Shown: piece by piece, positions 7,757-41,926 of the stretch
How positions within the stretch are numbered: position 1 is the stretch's first letter
Layout of the letters: each line of letters opens with the position of its first letter
Assembly: GCA_001871815.1 (NCBI GenBank)
Contig: MNVP01000077.1
Span: forward strand, 439 to 44,448
DNA length: 44,010 bases
Reading direction: 5' to 3'
Source: Candidatus Omnitrophica bacterium CG1_02_40_15
Lineage (GTDB): Bacteria > Omnitrophota > Gorgyraeia > Gorgyraeales > Gorgyraeaceae
The notes under the pieces: generated by a model
What the model was told of the DNA's origin: nothing
What the model saw: the letters and a program-made list of their open reading frames with translations, nothing else
Databases searched by the model: none
Made by a program: the position numbers and the translations under genes

Positions 7757-9836
7757 ACCTAATAATTATTTGTGGTAATAAAGCTAGATCCGCTACATCA
7801 TTTGTGTAGAGTTTATTAATGGCCTGCATCATTGCAAGCCTATTCCCGCGGAGAGCGCTGTCTTCTGTATTCACAAGCACGTTATCGAAAAACCTATGCA
7901 AGGCCTCAAAAAACGCCTCTCCGTATGCCTTAGTAGCCTCTTTGTATCTCTCTTCCTTTATCAAATTCTTTATTGCAACGTTATTGGCTGTGTACGCCAT
8001 CCAAACCTCTTTTTCCAGATCTTCCTTAAATAATTCCTCTTTGACGTCATTTATCTGTAGGGGGCGATCATTGATCGCCCCTACAGCGCCTTTTAAAATA
8101 TTAGAAGTCCTTTCGCAAACCTTGGCTGCTTTTAAAAAATATTTCTCAGCGCTTATTTCAGATAAAGCCTCTACCCTTTTGAATACGCTTACTATATCAT
8201 TACAGCCGGATTTAAGAACCGCCTGCTTCAACTCTATAGGCCTGGTGTCAGGTGCCAGAAACTCAAGCCTTTCCTTTATATAATTAAGTACCTTTTTTTC
8301 CAATTCTTCCTGCGATATTTTAAGTTTACCTTTATATACCTCTATCGCTTTTTTAATCAGGCCGGAAAGTTCCAATCTGATGGACTTATGGTTTAAAATC
8401 TGGATCAGGCCCTGGGAATTCCTTCTGATGCCAAACGGGTCAAAACTTCCTTTTGGCTCTATCCCGCTGCCTAAAAAGCCGACTATATTATCAACCCTGT
8501 CGCTTATCGCAAGTATTGCGCCTTCTATTGTTTCAGGGAGGCTATCATCCATGCCTTTGGGAAGATAATGCTCTTTTATGGCTATTGCTACAGATTTCTT
8601 TTCTCCGCTTTTAAGGGCGTATTCCATTCCCATTACGCCCTGCAGGCTTGGAAATTCTCCCACCATTTGCGTGACAAGGTCTGATTTGCATAAATACGCC
8701 GCTCTTTTTATGTCTTCCTTATTCGCAGTGTCTATACCTATCCTTTCAGAGATAAACGACGAGAGCTCTTCCAGCCTTTGAATTTTTTCGAACATATTAC
8801 CTAAATCTTTTTGAAAAATCAAGTCTTTTAATTTAGGGGTTTGGTCTGAAAGCGGCTTCTTTATGTCCTCGTTATAGAAAAACAGGCTGTCCTTAAGCCT
8901 GGCTTCTAAAATATTAGCGTATTGCTTCTTCATCTTCGCCATACTTCTGCCTTTACCGTCAATTACAGCGATAAATTTATTGATCAATTTGTTGTTTTTG
9001 GAAAGCGTGAATACCCTCTGATGTTTGGACATGCTGGCAGCTAAAACATCCTTCGGGATCGCTAAATATTTCTTGTCGAAATCCCCTATTATTAATACCG
9101 GAGACTTGACCAGAAAATTTGTTTCCTCAAGAAGATTTTTGTCGGCATATTCATCCAGGCCGAGTTTCTTTTGGACAGCTTTAATCATATGCTCTATTTC
9201 TATTTTTCTCTTATCCTGGTCCAGCATATATGCGTTTTCAAGTTTTTTAAGATATGCGCCTGCTGACGCGCCTTTAATAAATTTGGCTGGCACGTTTCCC
9301 AGTTTAATCTTCACATTTTCCTTATCCAATAAAACCGCAATAGATTCTATCGGCCTTGCGAATCTCACGCCAGAATCATCCCATTTCATTGTCTTCGGAA
9401 AACCAATTGATTTTACAATTTCAGGCATCAGGCCTCGAAGAACCTCTTTTGCAGGCTTTGACTTTATTTTCTTAACAATAAATACATATTCGCCTTTTGG
9501 CATTTGTTTTATCTTTAAATCCTTAATATCTACTCCCTGATTCTTTGCAAAGCCTATGCCCTGAGGAGTAGGATTGCCATTTTCATCAAATGCTATTTTC
9601 TTAGGCGGGCCTATTATCTCCTGAGAAAGTTCTTTTTGTCTTAATTGCATGTCTTTTACATAACATAAAAGAGTTGCGGCTGTCCCAAACACTCTGACCT
9701 CTCCATGCTCTATGCGCTCTCTGCTAAGCTTCTCAATAAATGCTTCCTTCAATTGAGCCAAAGCAGGCCTCACATAGCTAGCCGGCAACTCTTCAACATT
9801 GATCTCTAACAAAAAATCGCTGACATTTCTCTTCAT
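7755..9836 (-). CDS. glyS: Glycine--tRNA ligase beta subunit
   Basis: 693 aa. N-terminus FLLEINVEELPASY is typical of GlyS. Sits immediately downstream of glyQ. Confidence 0.95.
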   Translation of the reverse strand: MKRNVSDFLLEINVEELPASYVRPALAQLKEAFIEKLSRERIEHGEVRVFGTAATLLCYVKDMQLRQKELSQEIIGPPKKIAFDENGNPTPQGIGFAKNQGVDIKDLKIKQMPKGEYVFIVKKIKSKPAKEVLRGLMPEIVKSIGFPKTMKWDDSGVRFARPIESIAVLLDKENVKIKLGNVPAKFIKGASAGAYLKKLENAYMLDQDKRKIEIEHMIKAVQKKLGLDEYADKNLLEETNFLVKSPVLIIGDFDKKYLAIPKDVLAASMSKHQRVFTLSKNNKLINKFIAVIDGKGRSMAKMKKQYANILEARLKDSLFFYNEDIKKPLSDQTPKLKDLIFQKDLGNMFEKIQRLEELSSFISERIGIDTANKEDIKRAAYLCKSDLVTQMVGEFPSLQGVMGMEYALKSGEKKSVAIAIKEHYLPKGMDDSLPETIEGAILAISDRVDNIVGFLGSGIEPKGSFDPFGIRRNSQGLIQILNHKSIRLELSGLIKKAIEVYKGKLKISQEELEKKVLNYIKERLEFLAPDTRPIELKQAVLKSGCNDIVSVFKRVEALSEISAEKYFLKAAKVCERTSNILKGAVGAINDRPLQINDVKEELFKEDLEKEVWMAYTANNVAIKNLIKEERYKEATKAYGEAFFEALHRFFDNVLVNTEDSALRGNRLAMMQAINKLYTNDVADLALLPQIIIR
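8057..8084. repeat. REP-like GTAGGG..CCCTAC palindrome, copy 2 (in frame inside glyS)
   Basis: gtagggggcgatcattgatcgcccctac. Translated on the minus strand as VGAINDRPL within ...LKGAVGAINDRPLQIND.... Confidence 0.8.
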
Positions 9837-12158: not shown

Positions 12159-12863
12159 TCAACGGTGATTATACATCTGAAAAATAAACACTGTCACTAT
12201 AACTCCGACCAAAGCGCCTATAAAAACTTCCATAAGATTATGGACATTGGCGCTTATCCTGCTTCTGGCTACAAGAAGCGCCAGCACGAACACGAGGAAT
12301 ATAACCAAGCTGCTCGGATAAAGAAGCGAGATTATGGCCCATATCGAAAAGGCTATCGCGGCGTGGCCGCTCGGCATGCCTCCTCTTAAAGGAGTGCCCT
12401 TTTGCAAAATAAGTTTGCTCAAAACCACTATAACAAGAATAATAATCAATATTATTAATGTTATATTCCAGCTGGATCCCCTTATTTTTGCAATATTATC
12501 TTCTATCCTGATCCCCGCCCTGCTGGCAAATAAAATATAACCGACTACTGCGGCAGTTATTGCGCTTAATAAAACTGCTCCCGCGCCTATATCCTTCACT
12601 ATCCTCGCGAGAGGATGGTATTCCTGGCTCACCATATCCACTGTGTACTCAACAGCTGTATTAAACATTTCCGAAAAAAGGACAAATGCTATTATAATGC
12701 ACAGCGCAATTAATTCCATATAAGTGAAATTCAGGAGTATGCCCAGAAAGATGGCGAAGAGCCCCATTAAAAAATGAAGCCTCATGTTGCGCTGGCTCTT
12801 AAAAACATACACAAAACCTTCTATGGCTGCATTAAAACTTTCTACTAAACTCTGCTGTTTCAT
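12159..12863 (-). CDS. Diacylglycerol/undecaprenol kinase (DgkA) fused to a PAP2 lipid phosphatase
   Basis: The N-terminal half, SFNAAIEGFVYVFKSQRNMRLHF...SEMFNTAVEYTVD, is prokaryotic DgkA-like. The C-terminal half carries PAP2 motifs PSGHAA and SR(x5)H(x3)E (ARSRISANVHNLMEV). ATG 12863 chosen; the track start at 12899 is a GTG inside a REP-like palindrome. Confidence 0.75.
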   Translation of the reverse strand: MKQQSLVESFNAAIEGFVYVFKSQRNMRLHFLMGLFAIFLGILLNFTYMELIALCIIIAFVLFSEMFNTAVEYTVDMVSQEYHPLARIVKDIGAGAVLLSAITAAVVGYILFASRAGIRIEDNIAKIRGSSWNITLIILIIILVIVVLSKLILQKGTPLRGGMPSGHAAIAFSIWAIISLLYPSSLVIFLVFVLALLVARSRISANVHNLMEVFIGALVGVIVTVFIFQMYNHR

Positions 12864-12886
12864 AAAATGTGGTTTATGGCGCTTCG

Positions 12887-12915
12887 GTAGGGACAGCACA
12901 ATGTGCTGTCCCTAC
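12887..12915. repeat. REP-like GTAGGG..CCCTAC palindrome, copy 3 (intergenic)
   Basis: gtagggacagcaca-a-tgtgctgtccctac, perfect 14-nt arms. Confidence 0.85.
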
Positions 12916-13360: not shown

Positions 13361-13420
13361 CAGCTGTAAGCTTTAAGTTATAAGTTTTAAGCTTAAAGCT
13401 TATGGCTTATAACTTAAAAC
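13361..13420. repeat. Heptamer-periodic hairpin, AGCT type, copy a
   Basis: c agctgta agcttta agttata agtttta agcttaa agcttat ggcttat aacttaa aac. Fills the spacer between the PgpH-like gene and ybeY. Confidence 0.75.
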
Positions 13421-15030: not shown

Positions 15031-15046
15031 AGTCACCTTTGAATTT

Positions 15047-15074
15047 ACACCCGCCACAGAACTTTGGCGGGTGT
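15047..15074. other. GC-rich hairpin downstream of LysM gene
   Basis: acacccgcc-acagaacttt-ggcgggtgt, 9-bp stem. No U-tract on the minus strand. Confidence 0.5.
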
Positions 15075-15096
15075 AAATTAGCTAAGGAATTTATGA

Positions 15097-18905: not shown

Positions 18906-18934
18906 GTAAGGAACGGTTTCAAACCGTTCCTTAC
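18906..18934. repeat. REP-like palindrome, copy 4 (GTAAGG variant, IHF/HU 5' leader)
   Basis: gtaaggaacggttt-c-aaaccgttccttac, perfect 14-nt arms. Confidence 0.8.
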
Positions 18935-19075: not shown

Positions 19076-21121
19076 TTAACAGATTTTCCGCAAAAATGAC
19101 CAGATTATGCTAAAACTGACTTGTTTACAGCTAGGAATCTTGGCATTCCACCTTGGCAAGATACAGGACGATTGGTAGTTAAGTTCGTAGGCCCTTTCAG
19201 ACTGAGATACTGTCTTGACGGGAAAATACCATATGTTTTCCGGCTTTTTAGAAAATGTAAAATCGATATCTAATTCCTTGCCTGAATCCTTTATTGAGAA
19301 TGAGCTAGTTTCGGAAACCGAACCTTTTTCATTGAGGTTGCTTAGGATCTTATCGCCCGTAGAATAATTATATCTGTCTGAATTTAAATAAGGCATTGTC
19401 AGGTTAAATTCCACTCCAAAAATCGCATCAATCGTGCCCTTGCTTAAATTTTTTAAACTATACTCGATTTCTATCTGCGACTTACCTTTTAATTTTATCC
19501 CCTTAATAATAGCTATAGTTTTACCGCCCACTTTGCCTTTTCTTGTAAGCGTAATCTTATCCAATTCTATTTTAGCTTTATAACTGGCATTTACAAAATC
19601 GCCAAGCTCTTCATATTTCAAATCTATAAAATCGTCTATTGTAACGTTTTCGGAAATAAAATGATCTACAAGGCACCCTTTTATATATTTATCGTACACA
19701 AATTTGTCTTTTAATCCAGGATCAACAGCCTTTATGTCTTCATGGATTGTGCGTACAACATTAGGATCGCTTGACTGGCCCATCTTTGCGAGTATTTTCT
19801 TATGATATTCCTCTTCATGCCTTGCAAGGCTATTAACCAGATTAATGGATAATGGTTTATAATCTAATTCTCTTATAATTCCGCCTCTTTGGGGATCGAT
19901 ATAAATTGAAAAATTATTGCTTTCAATAATAAAAGACTTGGTCTTATCTTTATATAAATCAACCTTTTTTATATCTTCCCAATCTTTTTTATCTTTATGC
20001 AGCATTTCGTCTGCTATTTTGTCAGCATTTATAAGATGTTCGTAAATCGCTTTTCTAAGATGGTAAAGATAAAGCCCGCCGAATACGCCGTGCCAGTAAG
20101 CGCAGTTGCACTGGCCTTTGTATAATTCGCGTAGAGCTAACTTTTTACGCTCTATGCTCCATGCTCCATGCTCTATGCCATTAATTTTTTCGCTCACATA
20201 ATGCATTTTACTCGCCATATGATTGGTTTCCGGGTATTTCTTAAGAAAATTCATCCAGGATCCGTGCGACCACTCCATCATCTCCTGGTATGACGCCTCT
20301 GGAATCTTTATTTTTTTTGTAGGGACAGAACAATGTTCTGTCCCTACAAGATAATCTGAGAACTTAATTGTTTCCAACCAGTCCTTATTCTTCATGAGCT
20401 CTTCAAAAAACTTATTAAGCCAGCCTTGTTTATAAACCCAATCATGAGTAAAAGGCCACTCCCCGAATTTTTCGGCATCATCGCCATATGTAAGTAGGGG
20501 GCGGTCATTGACCGCTCCTACTTGCTTGAAATAATTTATTAACTCATGAGGCATCTTAAAAGGTATCATATAACGAAGTTTTTTGCTGGAAGGGAATATA
20601 GCTATTTCCTTTCCTTTCTCTCCTGTTGTAAAATATCCAAACAGCTCATCTTCTTTTAAACCGGCCATTATAAAATGTTCATCATCCAGTATTGAATATT
20701 TCATGCCGGCCCTATTAAAATCTTTGCTGAGCTCAGGCGACCAGACCCTTTCAGGGGTCCACATGCCCTGAACTTTTTGCTTGAATCTTTTTTTAATATA
20801 CTCTGTCATCATCTTTATCTGGCCAGCTCTATCTTTCTCCGGTATGCTTATAAAAATAGGCTCGTAATACCCTCCGCCTATAATCTCCACCTGGCCTCTA
20901 TCTACCATCGCTTTAACCCTGTCTAAAAAATCAGGGTGATTGTCTTCGAAATAATCCAGAAGGCATCCGGAAAAATGAAACGCCATTTTTATATCTGGAT
21001 ATCTTTCGAATACGTCCAGGAAACTTTTGTAGCAATTTTGATAAGCCCTTTCTACAATGTTATCAAAATTACCTATAGGCTGGTGAAAATGTAGACACAT
21101 CCCAAAATATATTTTATTCAT
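19076..21121 (-). CDS. GH57 alpha-amylase / 4-alpha-glucanotransferase-type enzyme
   Basis: 681 aa. All five GH57 conserved regions are present: HFHQP, GQVEIIGGGYYEP, WTPERVW (Glu nucleophile), GDDAEKFG (Asp acid/base), CNCAYWHGVFGG. Confidence 0.88.
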   Translation of the reverse strand: MNKIYFGMCLHFHQPIGNFDNIVERAYQNCYKSFLDVFERYPDIKMAFHFSGCLLDYFEDNHPDFLDRVKAMVDRGQVEIIGGGYYEPIFISIPEKDRAGQIKMMTEYIKKRFKQKVQGMWTPERVWSPELSKDFNRAGMKYSILDDEHFIMAGLKEDELFGYFTTGEKGKEIAIFPSSKKLRYMIPFKMPHELINYFKQVGAVNDRPLLTYGDDAEKFGEWPFTHDWVYKQGWLNKFFEELMKNKDWLETIKFSDYLVGTEHCSVPTKKIKIPEASYQEMMEWSHGSWMNFLKKYPETNHMASKMHYVSEKINGIEHGAWSIERKKLALRELYKGQCNCAYWHGVFGGLYLYHLRKAIYEHLINADKIADEMLHKDKKDWEDIKKVDLYKDKTKSFIIESNNFSIYIDPQRGGIIRELDYKPLSINLVNSLARHEEEYHKKILAKMGQSSDPNVVRTIHEDIKAVDPGLKDKFVYDKYIKGCLVDHFISENVTIDDFIDLKYEELGDFVNASYKAKIELDKITLTRKGKVGGKTIAIIKGIKLKGKSQIEIEYSLKNLSKGTIDAIFGVEFNLTMPYLNSDRYNYSTGDKILSNLNEKGSVSETSSFSIKDSGKELDIDFTFSKKPENIWYFPVKTVSQSERAYELNYQSSCILPRWNAKIPSCKQVSFSIIWSFLRKIC
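20319..20347. repeat. REP-like palindrome, copy 5 (in frame inside GH57-681)
   Basis: gtagggacagaaca-a-tgttctgtccctac. Translated as VGTEHCSVPT. Differs from copy 3 by a compensated pair (C/G to A/T). Confidence 0.85.
20494..20521. repeat. REP-like palindrome, copy 6 (in frame inside GH57-681)
   Basis: gtagggggcggtcattgaccgctcctac. Translated as VGAVNDRPL, directly N-terminal to the GDDAEKFG catalytic region. Confidence 0.8.
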
Positions 21122-22708: not shown

Positions 22709-22775
22709 AGCTGTAAGTTTTAAGCTGTAAGCTATAAGTTTTTCTTACAGCTTATGGCTTATAGCTTAAAGCTGT
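22709..22775. repeat. Heptamer-periodic hairpin, AGCT type, copy b
   Basis: agctgta agtttta agctgta agctata agttttt cttac agcttat ggcttat agcttaa agctgt. Fills the spacer between the GH57 (403 aa) gene and glgA. Confidence 0.78.
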
Positions 22776-24206: not shown

Positions 24207-24235
24207 GTAGGGGGCGGTTTCAAACCGTCCCCTAC
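24207..24235. repeat. REP-like palindrome, copy 7 (contains the TAG stop of GH57-444)
   Basis: gtagggggcggttt-c-aaaccgtcccctac. The CTA at 24232-24234 is the stop codon of the upstream gene. Confidence 0.85.
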
Positions 24236-25566
24236 CCATTTATTATTTCCATCCCCCTGCGGCAGATCTCTTTTGCGTAATCTGTCCATACGCCAGCGCC
24301 CCAATAACGGAAACAGCTAGTCTCGGACAACAATAAATAAAAAAGCGCTTTTTTGTATGTAGGGGCGGCCAGTGACCGCCCCCTACTCAATTCATCATCA
24401 AATTTCTTATGAAATGCTGCGCTAAACTTGGTTATAGGGTCCATTATATCTTCGTAACCCTTTACCCAATCCTTATCATTTGTCCATGATGCCTTTTCTA
24501 GGCTGAAACCTGGGTATTTTTGTTTCACTTTTTCAATAGCCCTGTCAGCTGCGCCATGAGAATATTCCTTTAAAAATTCCCAGATCTTACTCTGAGAAAC
24601 AGGTTCTACAGGCATAAATGATTTTTCGTCCAAGCCAGCTTGCTTTACTAACTTAAGATACTCTGTTCCATTCATGCCGACTGTGCCATCACAGCCTGTT
24701 TCTCGAAAAGCCTTCTTATACGCTTCTGGAAATTCATTCATCATTACTCCGCCGTTTTCCCCGTCTCCTATTTGAGCTACAAAACTCGGGATGTCCAGCC
24801 CGCAGTATTTCTCATGGCCTAAAGTCTTGGCTTCGTAATATGGCTGCATCTGGCCAATGAGTTTATTATCAGACCCTTGAGTCTTTATAATAACTGTTAT
24901 CTCAGCCTTTTCTCCCAGAGAATTTTTAGCGACTAATTTATGCGGGAAATGCGGCCTTCTTATAGAGCTCCCGTCCATGTTTTCTATTGTGTGCTCCTGT
25001 ACCATCAGCCACCTGTACCCGCGCTCTTTCAAAACCTTTACATACTCAAAACACACATCAGGATGTATGGGGAGATGCATCTCGGGGCTAGAAAACCCTT
25101 TAACATTTTTAAGGGCTTTTTGGCCAAATATTGACGCAAAATAATCCTGCCATTCTTTTATATGAAGTTTTATATCTGGAACAGGTGTAGAACTAACTAC
25201 AGAATGCGACCACATTGTCCCGAGCCATTCCACATATCCAGAATATTTTTTATCACAGGTAACGAGCTTGAGATTATCCAAAACCCTTTCTTCGCCCATA
25301 TCCTTAAGGCCCCAGAGAAGATTCCCGGAATAATCCAGCATGATCCTTGGATTTTTACCTTCGCCTGAAAGTTCTCTTACGAAATCAGCTATCCTTGAAT
25401 AACAATTCAAAAATACAGGCGCATTGTGATTGTCTCCGACATTCTGATGCTCCATCATATACTGCAAATTAGAAATCAGCTTCGCTGTCCTAATATCAGA
25501 GCCGCCTGCTGGAATTATTGGCTGATGCATATGAAGCGCTATACCAAAACATGACTTTATTTTCAT
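24232..25566 (-). CDS. GH57-like glycoside hydrolase (444-aa divergent paralogue)
   Basis: HMHQP (region I), SSPEMH (candidate nucleophile Glu), GDGENGG (region IV-like), SCFRYWG (region V-like). More divergent than the other three paralogues. Confidence 0.7.
   Translation of the reverse strand: MKIKSCFGIALHMHQPIIPAGGSDIRTAKLISNLQYMMEHQNVGDNHNAPVFLNCYSRIADFVRELSGEGKNPRIMLDYSGNLLWGLKDMGEERVLDNLKLVTCDKKYSGYVEWLGTMWSHSVVSSTPVPDIKLHIKEWQDYFASIFGQKALKNVKGFSSPEMHLPIHPDVCFEYVKVLKERGYRWLMVQEHTIENMDGSSIRRPHFPHKLVAKNSLGEKAEITVIIKTQGSDNKLIGQMQPYYEAKTLGHEKYCGLDIPSFVAQIGDGENGGVMMNEFPEAYKKAFRETGCDGTVGMNGTEYLKLVKQAGLDEKSFMPVEPVSQSKIWEFLKEYSHGAADRAIEKVKQKYPGFSLEKASWTNDKDWVKGYEDIMDPITKFSAAFHKKFDDELSRGRSLAAPTYKKALFYLLLSETSCFRYWGAGVWTDYAKEICRRGMEIING
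24359..24386. repeat. REP-like palindrome, copy 8 (in frame inside GH57-444)
   Basis: gtaggggcggccagtgaccgccccctac. Translated as RGRSLAAPT. Confidence 0.8.
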
Positions 25567-27463: not shown

Positions 27464-28708
27464 TTATTTTGGAACTGTATTGCGCTCGACTTTTGTTGTT
27501 ATTCTCTTTGTTTCTACTTTATCATTCGAAGTTGCAGTAAAAGGCAGATCTATTTTCCCATCAGGAAGCGCAAGCCTCATGCTGAAAGTTCCGTCCGGCC
27601 TGAGATCTACTTTTTTATCCCCAAGCCTCACCTCTGCATCAGGCTCTGTGCGGCCATAAACAATAAGTTCTGCCCCTATTTCAAAAAAGAATTTGCGTTT
27701 TTTATCCGGCTGGATAAATTCGCTTGCGCCGCCTTGAAGATTTTCGCTTCCACCTAGATATGTAAATTCAGAGGCGCCAATCATAACTTTCCTGCCAAAT
27801 TTAGCTCCTTCGAGCCTCTTAAAATAAAGCAGGCCTTTCCATTCGCTTTCTGACATCCTGGAATACAAATATTTATATATGCGTTTTCTGGAAATACGCG
27901 AAAATAACCTATTTCTTAATAAAGGAGAAAATTTACTGTAATACGCTCTTAAATCTGCCTGGCTAAGATAAATCTTTCTTCTTCTGGATACAGTAGGGAA
28001 CGGCCGCGGCCGTTCCCTACTAAACCTGCCTGCTGTATCATATTGAACAGCGTTTTCGCCTCTATTGAATGTAGGGGACGGCCGCGACCGTCCCCTACCT
28101 GCTTTTTCAATAGCAATCTCATCGCTAATATCCATCCATATCTCTTCAAATCTGTTTGACGAACTGGAGCGGGGGGTATGCACAAAGTTAGACCTGGCCA
28201 TTGGAAAAAATCTTCCGGAAGTATGGACTATGCCTATCTCTCCGCAATACGACACATTGTCATTCCAAAGGCTTATATACCAATTATTGGAATAACGGCC
28301 TACTTCTATATCAAACCAATGATTGGCATTAAAACCATTAAAATCTTTATATGTTATATCATACATGCGCACGATAAATTTGGCGCCGTCCAGGTTGCCG
28401 CCCAATTGTTTCTTCACATTTTCTATTGAACTCTCGGCAATTTCCCAGTAAGCGTATATCCAGAAAGGATCCTTTGGTATCAACGTAATCCTTGTTATAG
28501 TATCGTAAGAAGGAAGTTCGTATTCATTTATCGTTATATTTGGCGCGCTTTTATATTCTTTTATTGCGCAGGATGGCTCTATCACGGCAACAGAAAGCTT
28601 TCTACGGACTGCTTTTCTTTTTACAGCCTTTACAATAGCCTCTCTTCCATCTTTATAAATGCGCTCTATGGAATTTCTTTTTTTAATTTTTGGTTTTTTA
28701 ACGGCCAT
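27464..28708 (-). CDS. DUF4912-like protein of unknown function
   Basis: 414 aa. The block ITLIPKDPFWIYAYWEI...IVRMYDIT resembles DUF4912. A basic, probably disordered middle carries two REP-like insertions. C-terminal beta-rich region. Confidence 0.65.
   Translation of the reverse strand: MAVKKPKIKKRNSIERIYKDGREAIVKAVKRKAVRRKLSVAVIEPSCAIKEYKSAPNITINEYELPSYDTITRITLIPKDPFWIYAYWEIAESSIENVKKQLGGNLDGAKFIVRMYDITYKDFNGFNANHWFDIEVGRYSNNWYISLWNDNVSYCGEIGIVHTSGRFFPMARSNFVHTPRSSSSNRFEEIWMDISDEIAIEKAGRGRSRPSPTFNRGENAVQYDTAGRFSRERPRPFPTVSRRRKIYLSQADLRAYYSKFSPLLRNRLFSRISRKRIYKYLYSRMSESEWKGLLYFKRLEGAKFGRKVMIGASEFTYLGGSENLQGGASEFIQPDKKRKFFFEIGAELIVYGRTEPDAEVRLGDKKVDLRPDGTFSMRLALPDGKIDLPFTATSNDKVETKRITTKVERNTVPK
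27993..28020. repeat. REP-like palindrome, copy 9 (in frame inside DUF4912 gene)
   Basis: gtagggaacggccgcggccgttccctac, perfect. Translated as RERPRPFPT. Confidence 0.85.
28071..28098. repeat. REP-like palindrome, copy 10 (in frame inside DUF4912 gene)
   Basis: gtaggggacggccgcgaccgtcccctac. Translated as RGRSRPSPT. Confidence 0.85.
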
Positions 28709-29865: not shown

Positions 29866-29933
29866 CAGCTTTAAGCTATAAGCTTTAAGCTATAAGCTTT
29901 TTCTTACAGCTTACAGCTTAAAACTTACAGCTG
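29866..29933. repeat. Heptamer-periodic hairpin, AGCT type, copy c
   Basis: c agcttta agctata agcttta agctata agctttt tcttac agcttac agcttaa aacttac agctg. Fills the CBM48-GT4 spacer. Confidence 0.8.
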
Positions 29934-31019: not shown

Positions 31020-31047
31020 GTAGGGAACGGTCGCGACCGTTCCCTAC
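31020..31047. repeat. REP-like palindrome, copy 11 (contains the TAG stop of the histidine kinase)
   Basis: gtagggaacggtcgcgaccgttccctac, perfect. The CTA at 31044-31046 is the kinase stop. Differs from copy 9 by a compensated C/G to T/A pair. Confidence 0.85.
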
Positions 31048-37536: not shown

Positions 37537-38496
37537 TCATAAAAAATTATCCACGCAAGGAAAATTTTTGTGCCCAACTATAAATTCTTTCGTAGTCATT
37601 CTTCGCGAACCCTCTAATTGAAGCTCTTCTATTTTTAAAGCCCCTTTTCCTGTTTTAACCAGTATGCCATTTTTATTAATTTCCAATATGGCGCCGGGCT
37701 CACTTTTGGCCCACCTGTCAGGTGAACCAGATGGCTCATCTGACAGGTGGACAGGTATTGCCTTATATATTTTAAGTATTTTTTTATCCAAATGCGTAAA
37801 ACACCCCGGCCATGGCGCAAAAGCCCTGATTCTATTGCAAATTTCATCAGCGCTATTAGCCCAGTTAATCAGGCCATCTTCTTTTTTTAATTTAGGCGCA
37901 TAAGTTGCCTTATTATGATCCTGCACTATAAATTTAACCTCATTGTCCCTTATTAACCTTATGGCATCCAATAAAATATTTGCGCCTTTTATGGAAAGTT
38001 TTTCCGATAATGTAACAGCATTATCCTGTTCACTTACAGGCAATATTTTTTTAAGAATGACATCCCCTTCATCCAGTTTTTCATTCATGCGCATAATGGT
38101 TACGCCTGTCTCTTTTTCTCCGTTCGCAATAGCCCAGTTTATAGGGGCTGCCCCTCTATATTTTGGTAGAAGCGAGGCATGGATATTCAGGCAATATAAT
38201 TTTGGTAAACTCAATACTGGTTTCGAAAGCATCTGGCCAAAGCTTACTACGATAAATAAATCCGCGTTAAACTTTTTCAGGAATTCTATGGATTCCTTAG
38301 AATTTACTTTGACAGGTTGAAATATCTTAATCCCGAGTTCTCCGGCTTTTAATTTTACCGCTGTAGGCGCTATTTTAAGAGACCTGCCCTTTTGCCTGTC
38401 TGGCTGTGTAATAACCAGAACAATATTCTCGTTCTTAGCAAGTTCCCCTAATATAGGTACAGCAAAATTTGAGCTGCCGAAAAATACTATTTTCAT
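37537..38496 (-). CDS. fmt: Methionyl-tRNA formyltransferase
   Basis: 319 aa. MKIVFFGSSNFAVPIL..., NIHASLLPKYRGAAPINWAI (SLLP motif). Follows def. Confidence 0.95.
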   Translation of the reverse strand: MKIVFFGSSNFAVPILGELAKNENIVLVITQPDRQKGRSLKIAPTAVKLKAGELGIKIFQPVKVNSKESIEFLKKFNADLFIVVSFGQMLSKPVLSLPKLYCLNIHASLLPKYRGAAPINWAIANGEKETGVTIMRMNEKLDEGDVILKKILPVSEQDNAVTLSEKLSIKGANILLDAIRLIRDNEVKFIVQDHNKATYAPKLKKEDGLINWANSADEICNRIRAFAPWPGCFTHLDKKILKIYKAIPVHLSDEPSGSPDRWAKSEPGAILEINKNGILVKTGKGALKIEELQLEGSRRMTTKEFIVGHKNFPCVDNFL

Positions 38497-38501
38497 AATT
38501 T

Positions 38502-38580
38502 AGCTATAAGTTATAAGCTTTAAGTTTTAAGCATTTAACATCCATAAATCTTACAGCTTATAGCTTAAAGCTTACAGCTG
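38502..38580. repeat. Heptamer-periodic hairpin, AGCT type, copy d
   Basis: agctata agttata agcttta agtttta agcattt aacatcc ataaatc ttac agcttat agcttaa agcttac agctg. Fills the def-fmt spacer. Confidence 0.78.
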
Positions 38581-41858: not shown

Positions 41859-41866
41859 GATATTTT

Positions 41867-41891
41867 GGGCGGCATAATATGCCGCCCCTAC
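41867..41891. repeat. Partial REP-like element (GGGCGGCAT-AATATGCCGCCC-CTAC)
   Basis: gggcggcataatatgccgcccctac: a palindromic core with the CTAC tail but no GTAG head. Adjacent to copy 12. Confidence 0.55.
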
Positions 41892-41898
41892 ATTATTT

Positions 41899-41926
41899 GT
41901 AGGGGCCGATTATTAATCGGCCCTAT
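41899..41926. repeat. REP-like palindrome, copy 12 (supplies the last codons and stop of udg)
   Basis: gtaggggccgattattaatcggccctat. On the minus strand, ATA TAT AGG GCC GAT TAA encodes ...IYRAD*. Confidence 0.75.

Follow-up and report, generated by a model that had tools for sequence, protein, structure and literature searches.

The closest described relatives of the palindromes reported here are the REPs of RAYT/TnpA_REP subclass 2.4, which corresponds to Bertels group 4. Quentin, Siguier, Chandler and Fichant (2018; PMC6006769) characterized subclass 2.4 REPs as long elements with three G-C pairs at the base of the stem, described 'double foot' REPs with a 5' GT[AG]G and a 3' C[TC]AC, and found REPs in frame within the tnpA_REP gene. 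Their sample consisted of finished genomes, mainly of Cyanobacteria and Bacteroidetes, and Omnitrophota are unreported there. Di Nocera, De Gregorio and Rocco (2013; PMC3733652) described GTAG REPs within unrelated ORFs, including tRNA synthetase genes, REP ends that donate TAG stop codons, subfamilies with complementary stem changes, and two Xanthomonas species that carry different REPs at about the same site in recB; the families are richest in Opitutus terrae, of the PVC group. The REPINs of Pseudomonas and Enterobacteria (Bertels and Rainey) are inverted REP doublets of about 50–100 nt, extragenic and associated with RAYT groups 2 and 3. Rickettsia palindromic elements are a further case of palindromic DNA within genes; RPE-1 is approximately 100–150 bp long, specific to Rickettsia, and has neither GTAG…CTAC feet nor an associated RAYT, and RPE-4 and RPE-6 are of the CGTC type according to Di Nocera et al. 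(PMC3733652). Biochemically, RAYTs bind the folded single-stranded REP and require its GTAG foot, through which the CT (or CA) dinucleotides for cleavage and rejoining are chosen (PMC8266576). The activity reported is in vitro cleavage and strand transfer; transposition has never been directly shown, and REP dissemination is still an open problem (PMC8266576). In the literature searched, we found no paper that ties Omnitrophota to RAYTs.

We here analyzed a 44-kb stretch of DNA (the window) from Candidatus Omnitrophica bacterium CG1_02_40_15, a member of the Omnitrophota from a groundwater metagenome. The corresponding ENA contig, ERZ909571 k127_103627, is 49,281 nt long. The window has a G+C content of 40.7% and a coding density of approximately 92%, and its minus strand bears nearly all genes. 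The exact pattern GTAGGG-N14-20-CCCTAC is found eight times, compared with 0.01 matches expected from 100 dinucleotide-preserving shuffles, none of which contained eight. Relaxing the ends added two copies, at 18906 (GTAAGG..CCTTAC) and 20494 (..CTCCTAC), and a palindrome scan added three more, at 1340 (GTACGG), at 41899 (..CCCTAT) and a single-foot copy at 41866–41892. A preliminary description of this DNA had recognized the family and counted twelve palindromes; the family stands and the number is corrected to 13 copies, typically 28–29 nt long and including an inverted doublet (41866–41892 and 41899–41926). One further copy is present in the 5 kb of the contig that lie outside the window. 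The copies in the window are:

1340–1368: REP of 29 nt with the variant foot GTACGG…CCCTAC, intergenic between ORF 1619–2098 and a porin-like ORF (1–1314), dG −10.9
8057–8084: REP of 28 nt with a one-base bulge, in frame in the minus-strand glyS gene as VGAINDRPL, in a DALR-proximal linker
12887–12915: perfect REP of 29 nt, 7 nt 3' of the stop codon of a ybeY-like gene
18906–18934: REP of 29 nt with the compensated foot variant GTAAGG…CCTTAC, intergenic between GH57-681 and the HU gene
20319–20347: REP of 29 nt, in frame in GH57-681 as VGTEHCSVPT, replacing ancestral NSNSPV (net +12 nt)
20494–20521: REP of 28 nt, in frame in GH57-681 as VGAVNDRPL, replacing 28 nt with the length unchanged
24207–24235: REP of 29 nt whose foot provides the TAG stop codon of GH57-444 (24234–24232)
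24359–24386: REP of 28 nt, in frame in GH57-444 as RGRSLAAPT (net +9 nt relative to the syntenic locus L002)
27993–28020: perfect REP of 28 nt, in frame in the DUF4912 gene as RERPRPFPT (net +18 nt)
28071–28098: REP of 28 nt, in frame in the DUF4912 gene as RGRSRPSPT
31020–31047: perfect REP of 28 nt, providing the TAG stop codon (31046–31044) of a HisKA_3 kinase gene
41866–41892: single-foot REP, GGGCGGCATAATATGCCGCCCCTAC, left half of the inverted doublet, the feet of which face each other
41899–41926: REP, GTAGGGGCCGATTATTAATCGGCCCTAT, right half of the doublet, overlapping the 3' end of the UDG gene

The six intragenic copies are spread over glyS, two GH57 genes and the DUF4912 gene, and five of them are 28 nt long. 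All six in-frame peptides listed in the preliminary description are present in the ORF translations, and Pfam confirms the host genes as the GlyS beta subunit, a GH57/4-alpha-glucanotransferase, a GH57 protein and a DUF4912 protein. The description had also noted that copies in genes use the two open frames and not the one that contains TAG. This holds, and copies in the TAG frame are confined to gene ends. With 6 of 13 copies fully intragenic, against the 92% expected from the coding density (binomial P = 3e-5), REPs are depleted in genes, though far from excluded. Gene ends are affected in further ways: the UDG gene has its TAA stop inside the loop of the copy at 41899–41926, and just outside the window a degenerate GTAAGG copy supplies the TAA stop of ligA. 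On the level of annotation, one ORF start and several stop codons in the window lie within REPs; the copy at 12887–12915 is overlapped only by the mechanical GTG start of a DAGK/PAP2 ORF.

The anatomy is that of a double-foot element. Both a 5' GT[AG]G foot and its 3' reverse complement C[TC]AC are present in 11 of the 13 copies, foot variants being GTAAGG/CCTTAC and GTACGG, and in nearly all copies a GGG/CCC stem base directly follows the foot in a stem of 12–13 pairs. In an alignment of 24 copies taken from the window and from relatives, 96.7% of cells are paired and both partners vary in 11 of 13 stem pairs, a degree of covariation that none of 500 shuffles equalled. The two examples of mutually compensated centers given earlier, 12887 versus 20319 and 27993 versus 31020, are both correct. 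Folded as single-stranded DNA, the copies reach −9 to −14 kcal/mol, with z-scores of −4 to −8 relative to shuffles. At gathering thresholds, Rfam has no family that overlaps the palindromes, its sole match in the window being a tRNA.

Compared with the described systems, the window copies share with the REPs of TnpA_REP subclass 2.4 (PMC6006769) the feet, the three G-C pairs, a long perfect stem, in-frame coding copies, the cognate-enzyme motifs NH[IFV]H, WQ and YIxNNP, and a distribution scattered over phyla. The in-frame copies of that study are mainly in tnpA_REP, whereas here half of the copies are in housekeeping or glycogen-metabolism genes. With the families of Di Nocera et al. (PMC3733652) the window shares the GTAG tag, stem subfamilies, donation of TAG stops and copies within ORFs. 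However, those families are defined by an unpaired tag at one end only and their intragenic cases are mostly dimers that encode 20–30 aa, whereas the window units are symmetric, single and encode 9–10 aa. The REPINs are likewise non-autonomous hairpin repeats tied to a single-copy RAYT, and the doublet at 41866–41926 is arranged in a REPIN-like manner, but the window copies are mostly single 28–29-nt units and many are intragenic. The preliminary description had pointed to Rickettsia palindromic elements as the best-known in-frame palindromes; the common trait, selfish palindromic DNA tolerated in frame in permissive parts of proteins, is sound, but the closer precedents (PMC3733652, PMC6006769) were missed. 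Membership of the Rickettsia elements themselves is excluded by size (28–29 nt rather than approximately 100–150 bp), by sequence and by the host, which belongs to the Omnitrophota.

Beyond the window, we searched 185,579 species genomes for GTAGGGG-N14-15-CCCCTAC. At least 120 loci match, and those listed come from many phyla, among them Chloroflexota, Cyanobacteria, Desulfobacterota, Acidobacteriota, Gemmatimonadota, Bacteroidota, Planctomycetota, Patescibacteria and Omnitrophica. Among the matches listed, 124 of 129 have at least 12 of 14 pairs, 82 of 129 are perfect palindromes, and identical palindrome sequences are shared by unrelated phyla. Two of the loci listed (L062 and L046) carry genes similar to E. 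coli RayT. Their products match the NCBIfam model REP_Tyr_transpos with E values of 1.6e-19 and 2.9e-16, matches that fall below the curated 80-bit cut-off, and a Pfam scan of the two proteins gave no family at E 0.001. In both genes a palindrome lies in frame, after the HUH motif and before the C-terminal tyrosine motif. Nearly all of approximately 120 homologues have a REP-coded peptide in that same interval, read as RGTMHRAPT or RGTLQRAPT in frame 2 or as VGAYCNTPL, which is the same DNA as RGVLQYAPT, in frame 1. Across approximately 240 RAYT homologues overall, for many of which PF01797 is precomputed, such a peptide stands just after the HUH motif and is read in either frame. Since the REP inside the RAYT genes is read in either frame, it is the DNA rather than the peptide that is conserved.

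The link to the window itself comes from a scan of JGI metagenomes for HGI codons followed within 8–38 nt by the window's own REP subfamily, which returned 28 loci (L135–L162). In at least 21 of these, a full-length RAYT ORF contains the exact 28-mer of 31020–31047, read in frame as VGNGRDRSL; in the window, the identical sequence supplies the stop codon of the kinase gene. The RAYTs of these loci have the motifs PNH[FLIV]HGI, WQKS[FY] and YIxxNP, and additional REPs are often present directly upstream as well as at the stop codon. A profile built from the metagenome RAYTs retrieved a protein annotated as 'transposase [Candidatus Omnitrophota bacterium]' (P0268), with the motifs PNHLHGI, WQKSF and YIVNNP. 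Its locus, in an Omnitrophota MAG (GCA_043821705.1), has the identical 28-mer of 31020 inside the RAYT gene, a degenerate REP 15 nt upstream and a 29-nt REP within the 3' end of the gene. For a RAYT of the P0268 type, GTAGGGAACGGTCGCGACCGTTCCCTAC is a candidate single-stranded REP substrate. Searches with E. coli RayT, the L062 and L046 RAYTs and P0268 detected no RAYT in the window, in the rest of the 49-kb contig or in the syntenic loci, the only matches being REP-coded decapeptides; the earlier statement that the window has no RAYT gene is thus upheld and extends to the whole contig. The REP/RAYT assignment proposed in the preliminary description is strongly supported, given the double-foot anatomy and the identical 28-mer in and beside RAYT genes, including one in an Omnitrophota MAG.

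Taken together, the palindromes are very probably double-foot REPs, cognate to RAYT/TnpA_REP subclass 2.4, that have been spread by a RAYT encoded in another part of the genome. By analogy with the biochemistry of other RAYTs, we infer the catalytic steps for the CG1_02_40_15 enzyme and the joining at CT sites. A single-copy HUH-tyrosine enzyme would recognize the hairpin on single-stranded DNA via the GTAG foot, then cleave and rejoin at CT dinucleotides, so that a unit of approximately 28 nt would be copied or moved. Copies that arrive in genes would survive in three situations only: when they are read in one of the two TAG-free frames, giving VG…PL or RG…PT; when the total change in length is divisible by three and affects a loop or linker that tolerates it; or when they lie at a gene end, with the TAG frame serving as the stop codon. 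Selection would, on this proposal, keep only in-frame, structurally tolerated copies or those at gene ends.

To compare filled with empty sites we used a syntenic 12-kb locus from a relative that is 85% identical (L002). None of the window's seven REPs from the syntenic 12 kb is present there, so these REPs are lineage-specific. The net difference in length between the window and L002 is 0 nt at 20494 (28 nt for 28 nt), +12 nt at 20319, +9 nt at 24359, +18 nt at 27993 and, for the intergenic copy at 31020, +40 nt. In glyS, the nearest representatives (56–61% identical) and solved structures are without the VGAINDRPL segment, and the net gain is approximately 6 aa. The net changes at intragenic sites are therefore 0, +9, +12, +18 and +18 nt, and none is +28 or +29. 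At 20494 an equal-length loop is found in relatives, even in the enzyme of Thermococcus litoralis (PDB 1k1w), whereas at the other sites 3–6 aa are gained and ancestral residues have been replaced. The preliminary description had the palindromes 'inserted in frame'. That they are lineage-specific and in frame is borne out, but the DNA alignments, with replaced residues and net changes other than 28 or 29 nt, show that none is a clean insertion of 28–29 nt or 9–10 aa; 'in-frame replacement or indel of loop sequence' is the better description. The accompanying expectation that the segments would have no counterpart in orthologues from distant taxa also fails in part, at 20494, given the same-length loop of the distant Thermococcus enzyme.

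The empty alleles have CCT or CTACT exactly beneath the 3' foot of the REP at three of four comparable sites, which fits joining at CT, and the comparisons of filled with empty sites revealed neither target-site duplications nor conserved flanking bases. In one of the syntenic loci from other Omnitrophota (L012), the ancestral loop of GH57-681 is intact, and a degenerate REP immediately upstream of it is a genuine insertion (+24 nt). Apart from this degenerate copy, the net lengths match neither a 28–29-nt nor a 24-nt insertion, which counts against the RAYT explanation. We also considered a mobile unit of 24 nt that is joined to a pre-existing GTAG/CTAC, which is contradicted by the sites with net changes of 0, +9, +12 and +18 nt. 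The observations in favor of such a unit are the +24 nt in L012, the empty site of 27993 in L002, which reads AG|CTAC|T, and the 28-nt length of five of the six intragenic copies.

Structurally, the copies had been expected in surface loops, and the AlphaFold model of GH57-681 (mean pLDDT 82.9) agrees with this only partly. The VGTEHCSVPT peptide (20319) is placed in a low-confidence loop, whereas the peptide at residues 201–209 (20494) is modeled with confidence and spans a helix end, a short turn and the first part of the strand running into GDDAEKFG. That this copy lies directly N-terminal to the GDDAEKFG region was correctly noted before, and the distance is four residues.

Across syntenic loci from other Omnitrophota (L002, L004 and L009–L012), the same loops are occupied repeatedly. 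REPs with different centers are found at the residue-201 site of GH57-681 in the window, L009, L010 and L011, and at both the residue-394 site and the stop codon of GH57-444 in the window and L010, where the stop is likewise supplied by the REP as it is at 24207. At the linker site of the DUF4912 gene (28071), the REP of L012 has a different center and reads RWQACLPPT. In a neighbor-joining tree of GH57-681 with the REP columns masked, REP-bearing sequences are scattered among REP-less sisters, and the REP-less sisters and outgroups keep an ancestral S-x-x-x-x-P-L-F loop. At the residue-201 site the Val and Pro-Leu codons of the REP coincide with the ancestral V/I and P-L, and the flanks of the window are nearest to those of the REP-less L002 and L004. 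Together with the gene tree, this points to independent gain of the residue-201 REP in several lineages, each time with no change in length. Recombinational import of REP-bearing alleles is rejected on the basis of the flanks, for this site only; at the GH57-444 and DUF4912 sites such import may account for the shared positions.

Recurrent, length-neutral re-occupation of the same loops is the sole aspect that goes beyond the literature examined, and it sets the window apart from the cases in PMC6006769. There are three candidate explanations for the repeated sites and the net lengths: strong filtering for loop tolerance combined with later in-frame indels, a real target preference for foot-like sequence, or a reaction of the replacement type. 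A specific form of the last, which we regard as tentative and rather unlikely, is that REP integration into genes is a site-directed, replacement-type reaction and not random insertion followed by selection. In such a reaction, the RAYT would put a REP in place of a stretch of single-stranded target that lies between foot-like sequences (GT… …CCT/CTAC). If true, this would account for the repeated overwriting of the same loops in independent lineages, for the zero length change at residues 201–209 of GH57-681 and for the ancestral Val and Pro-Leu codons under the REP feet. Excision would then be harmful once the ancestral loop is gone, and the element would be locked in, in a ratchet-like manner.

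The REP/RAYT reading has to be weighed against alternatives in which no RAYT takes part. Host cis-elements such as mRNA stabilizers, attenuators or nucleoid-protein sites, kept in place, non-mobile and unrelated to a transposase, could be expected to form stable hairpins, as those of the window are, and several copies do lie at gene ends, as do classical REPs that act at the RNA level; for E. coli, such REP functions are documented (PMC3733652, PMC8266576). We nevertheless consider this very unlikely, because genes for conserved enzymes carry copies at positions where the 85%-identical relative has none, the same sequences are present in unrelated phyla and RAYT genes have an identical 28-mer both within and around them. 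A mobile origin would, moreover, be compatible with a host function.

Mobility through another system, with the palindromes as miniature derivatives moved by an IS200/IS605 TnpA or as MITE-type elements moved by a DDE transposase, is highly improbable, even though IS200/IS605 ends also have hairpins and the enzymes are related (PMC6006769). The genes that carry the same palindrome have the NH[IFV]H, WQ and YIxNNP motifs and match the RAYT model, no IS200-type gene is present in any syntenic locus, and the lack of target-site duplications and of conserved flanks argues against both variants. For MITEs, 28–29 nt is far under the usual size, and the whole unit is one hairpin without a TIR-bounded non-palindromic core. 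Formation of the palindromes in place, by template-switch 'correction' of quasi-palindromes during replication and without copying, is scarcely tenable: the length-neutral replacement at 20494 and the perfect symmetry of the arms are what snap-back synthesis would give, but at no site does either arm resemble the ancestral sequence, the feet do not vary, and unlinked loci and other phyla share whole sequences that are identical. Independent assemblies from different samples share the copies, which rules out an assembly artefact, and a CRISPR array is ruled out by the irregular spacing (50 nt to 10 kb), the dissimilar centers and the many copies within genes.

These REPs are genuine and fall into a class that has been published, for which the Omnitrophota are a new host lineage of the RAYT subclass-2.4/REP system. 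It explains the recurrent VG…PL and RG…PT peptides in predicted proteins of uncultivated bacteria, and such REP-coded peptides can distort alignments, domain boundaries and gene calls. Translated selfish DNA is tolerated here by an essential aminoacyl-tRNA synthetase and also by a glycoside hydrolase, in the latter four residues before a conserved motif. The syntenic GH57 cluster of related Omnitrophota is a natural set of filled and empty sites with recurrent occupancy, which could help to work out how REPs integrate.

Identical 28-29-nt REP sequences occur in unrelated phyla, both among the matches listed from the genome scan (L013-L132) and in the JGI metagenome loci (L135-L162). Among the matches listed, GTAGGGGCGCACGGCCGTGCGCCCCTAC is common to Chloroflexota and Omnitrophica, and contigs with GTAGGGAACGGTCGCGACCGTTCCCTAC span 32-54% G+C, with the accompanying RAYT transposases bearing names from Omnitrophota, Patescibacteria, Bacteroidota and Cloacimonadota. 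This points to either horizontal spread of RAYT/REP pairs or strong constraint by the enzyme. Within the RAYT genes themselves, the REP-coded region is often expanded into tandem partial REP copies (P0135, P0136, P0178, P0199 and L147:2361-3026, the last with RDCDRFPRDCDRSL in repeated copies), which makes it a hypervariable in-frame segment lying between the HUH and Tyr motifs.

At two syntenic loci of other Omnitrophota, short peptides resemble the REP feet without the centre: KEEGRGSPAYKK in the GH57-444 orthologue of L009 (GRG…SPA) and SGAPTPC in the DUF4912 orthologue of L002 (G-APT). Both may have been left behind by the collapse of earlier REPs at the very sites where the window carries REPs. 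Other insertions were seen in homologous proteins: P0015, an Omnitrophota homologue of GH57-681, has the in-frame insertion IPRLRSGQAS (columns 410-425 of the alignment with GH57-681 homologues, A1), which is of a type other than GTAGGG, and P0020 has a private insertion of 35 aa.

Beside the REPs, the window holds a second repeat family of tandem TAAGCTN heptamers, in which 2-4 direct units are followed, after a short A/T spacer, by 2-3 inverted ones, giving imperfect hairpins of approximately 50-75 nt. Allowing at most one mismatch, TAAGCTATAAG has 23 matches vs 1.9 expected. All four hairpins lie 10-40 nt upstream of a minus-strand gene start, and the family is reminiscent of cyanobacterial heptameric STRR repeats. 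Two other hairpins, long and near-perfect, lie where genes end; they have no relation to the REP family and are probably terminator-like structures.

Hairpins outside the REP family in the window
13367-13416, TAAGCTN hairpin upstream of a ybeY-like gene (minus strand)
22721-22768, TAAGCTN hairpin upstream of glgA (minus strand)
29872-29920, TAAGCTN hairpin upstream of a GT4 gene (minus strand)
38500-38574, TAAGCTN hairpin upstream of ORF 37537-38496 (minus strand)
1569-1612, near-perfect hairpin of 44 nt at a gene end
15042-15079, near-perfect hairpin of 38 nt at a gene end

For the DAGK/PAP2 gene, the longest ORF (12159-12899) opens with a GTG that is part of the REP at 12887-12915. Translation probably starts further downstream, and start-codon calls can therefore be misled by REPs. 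In the same way, GH57-444 was cut to 432 aa by the gene caller.
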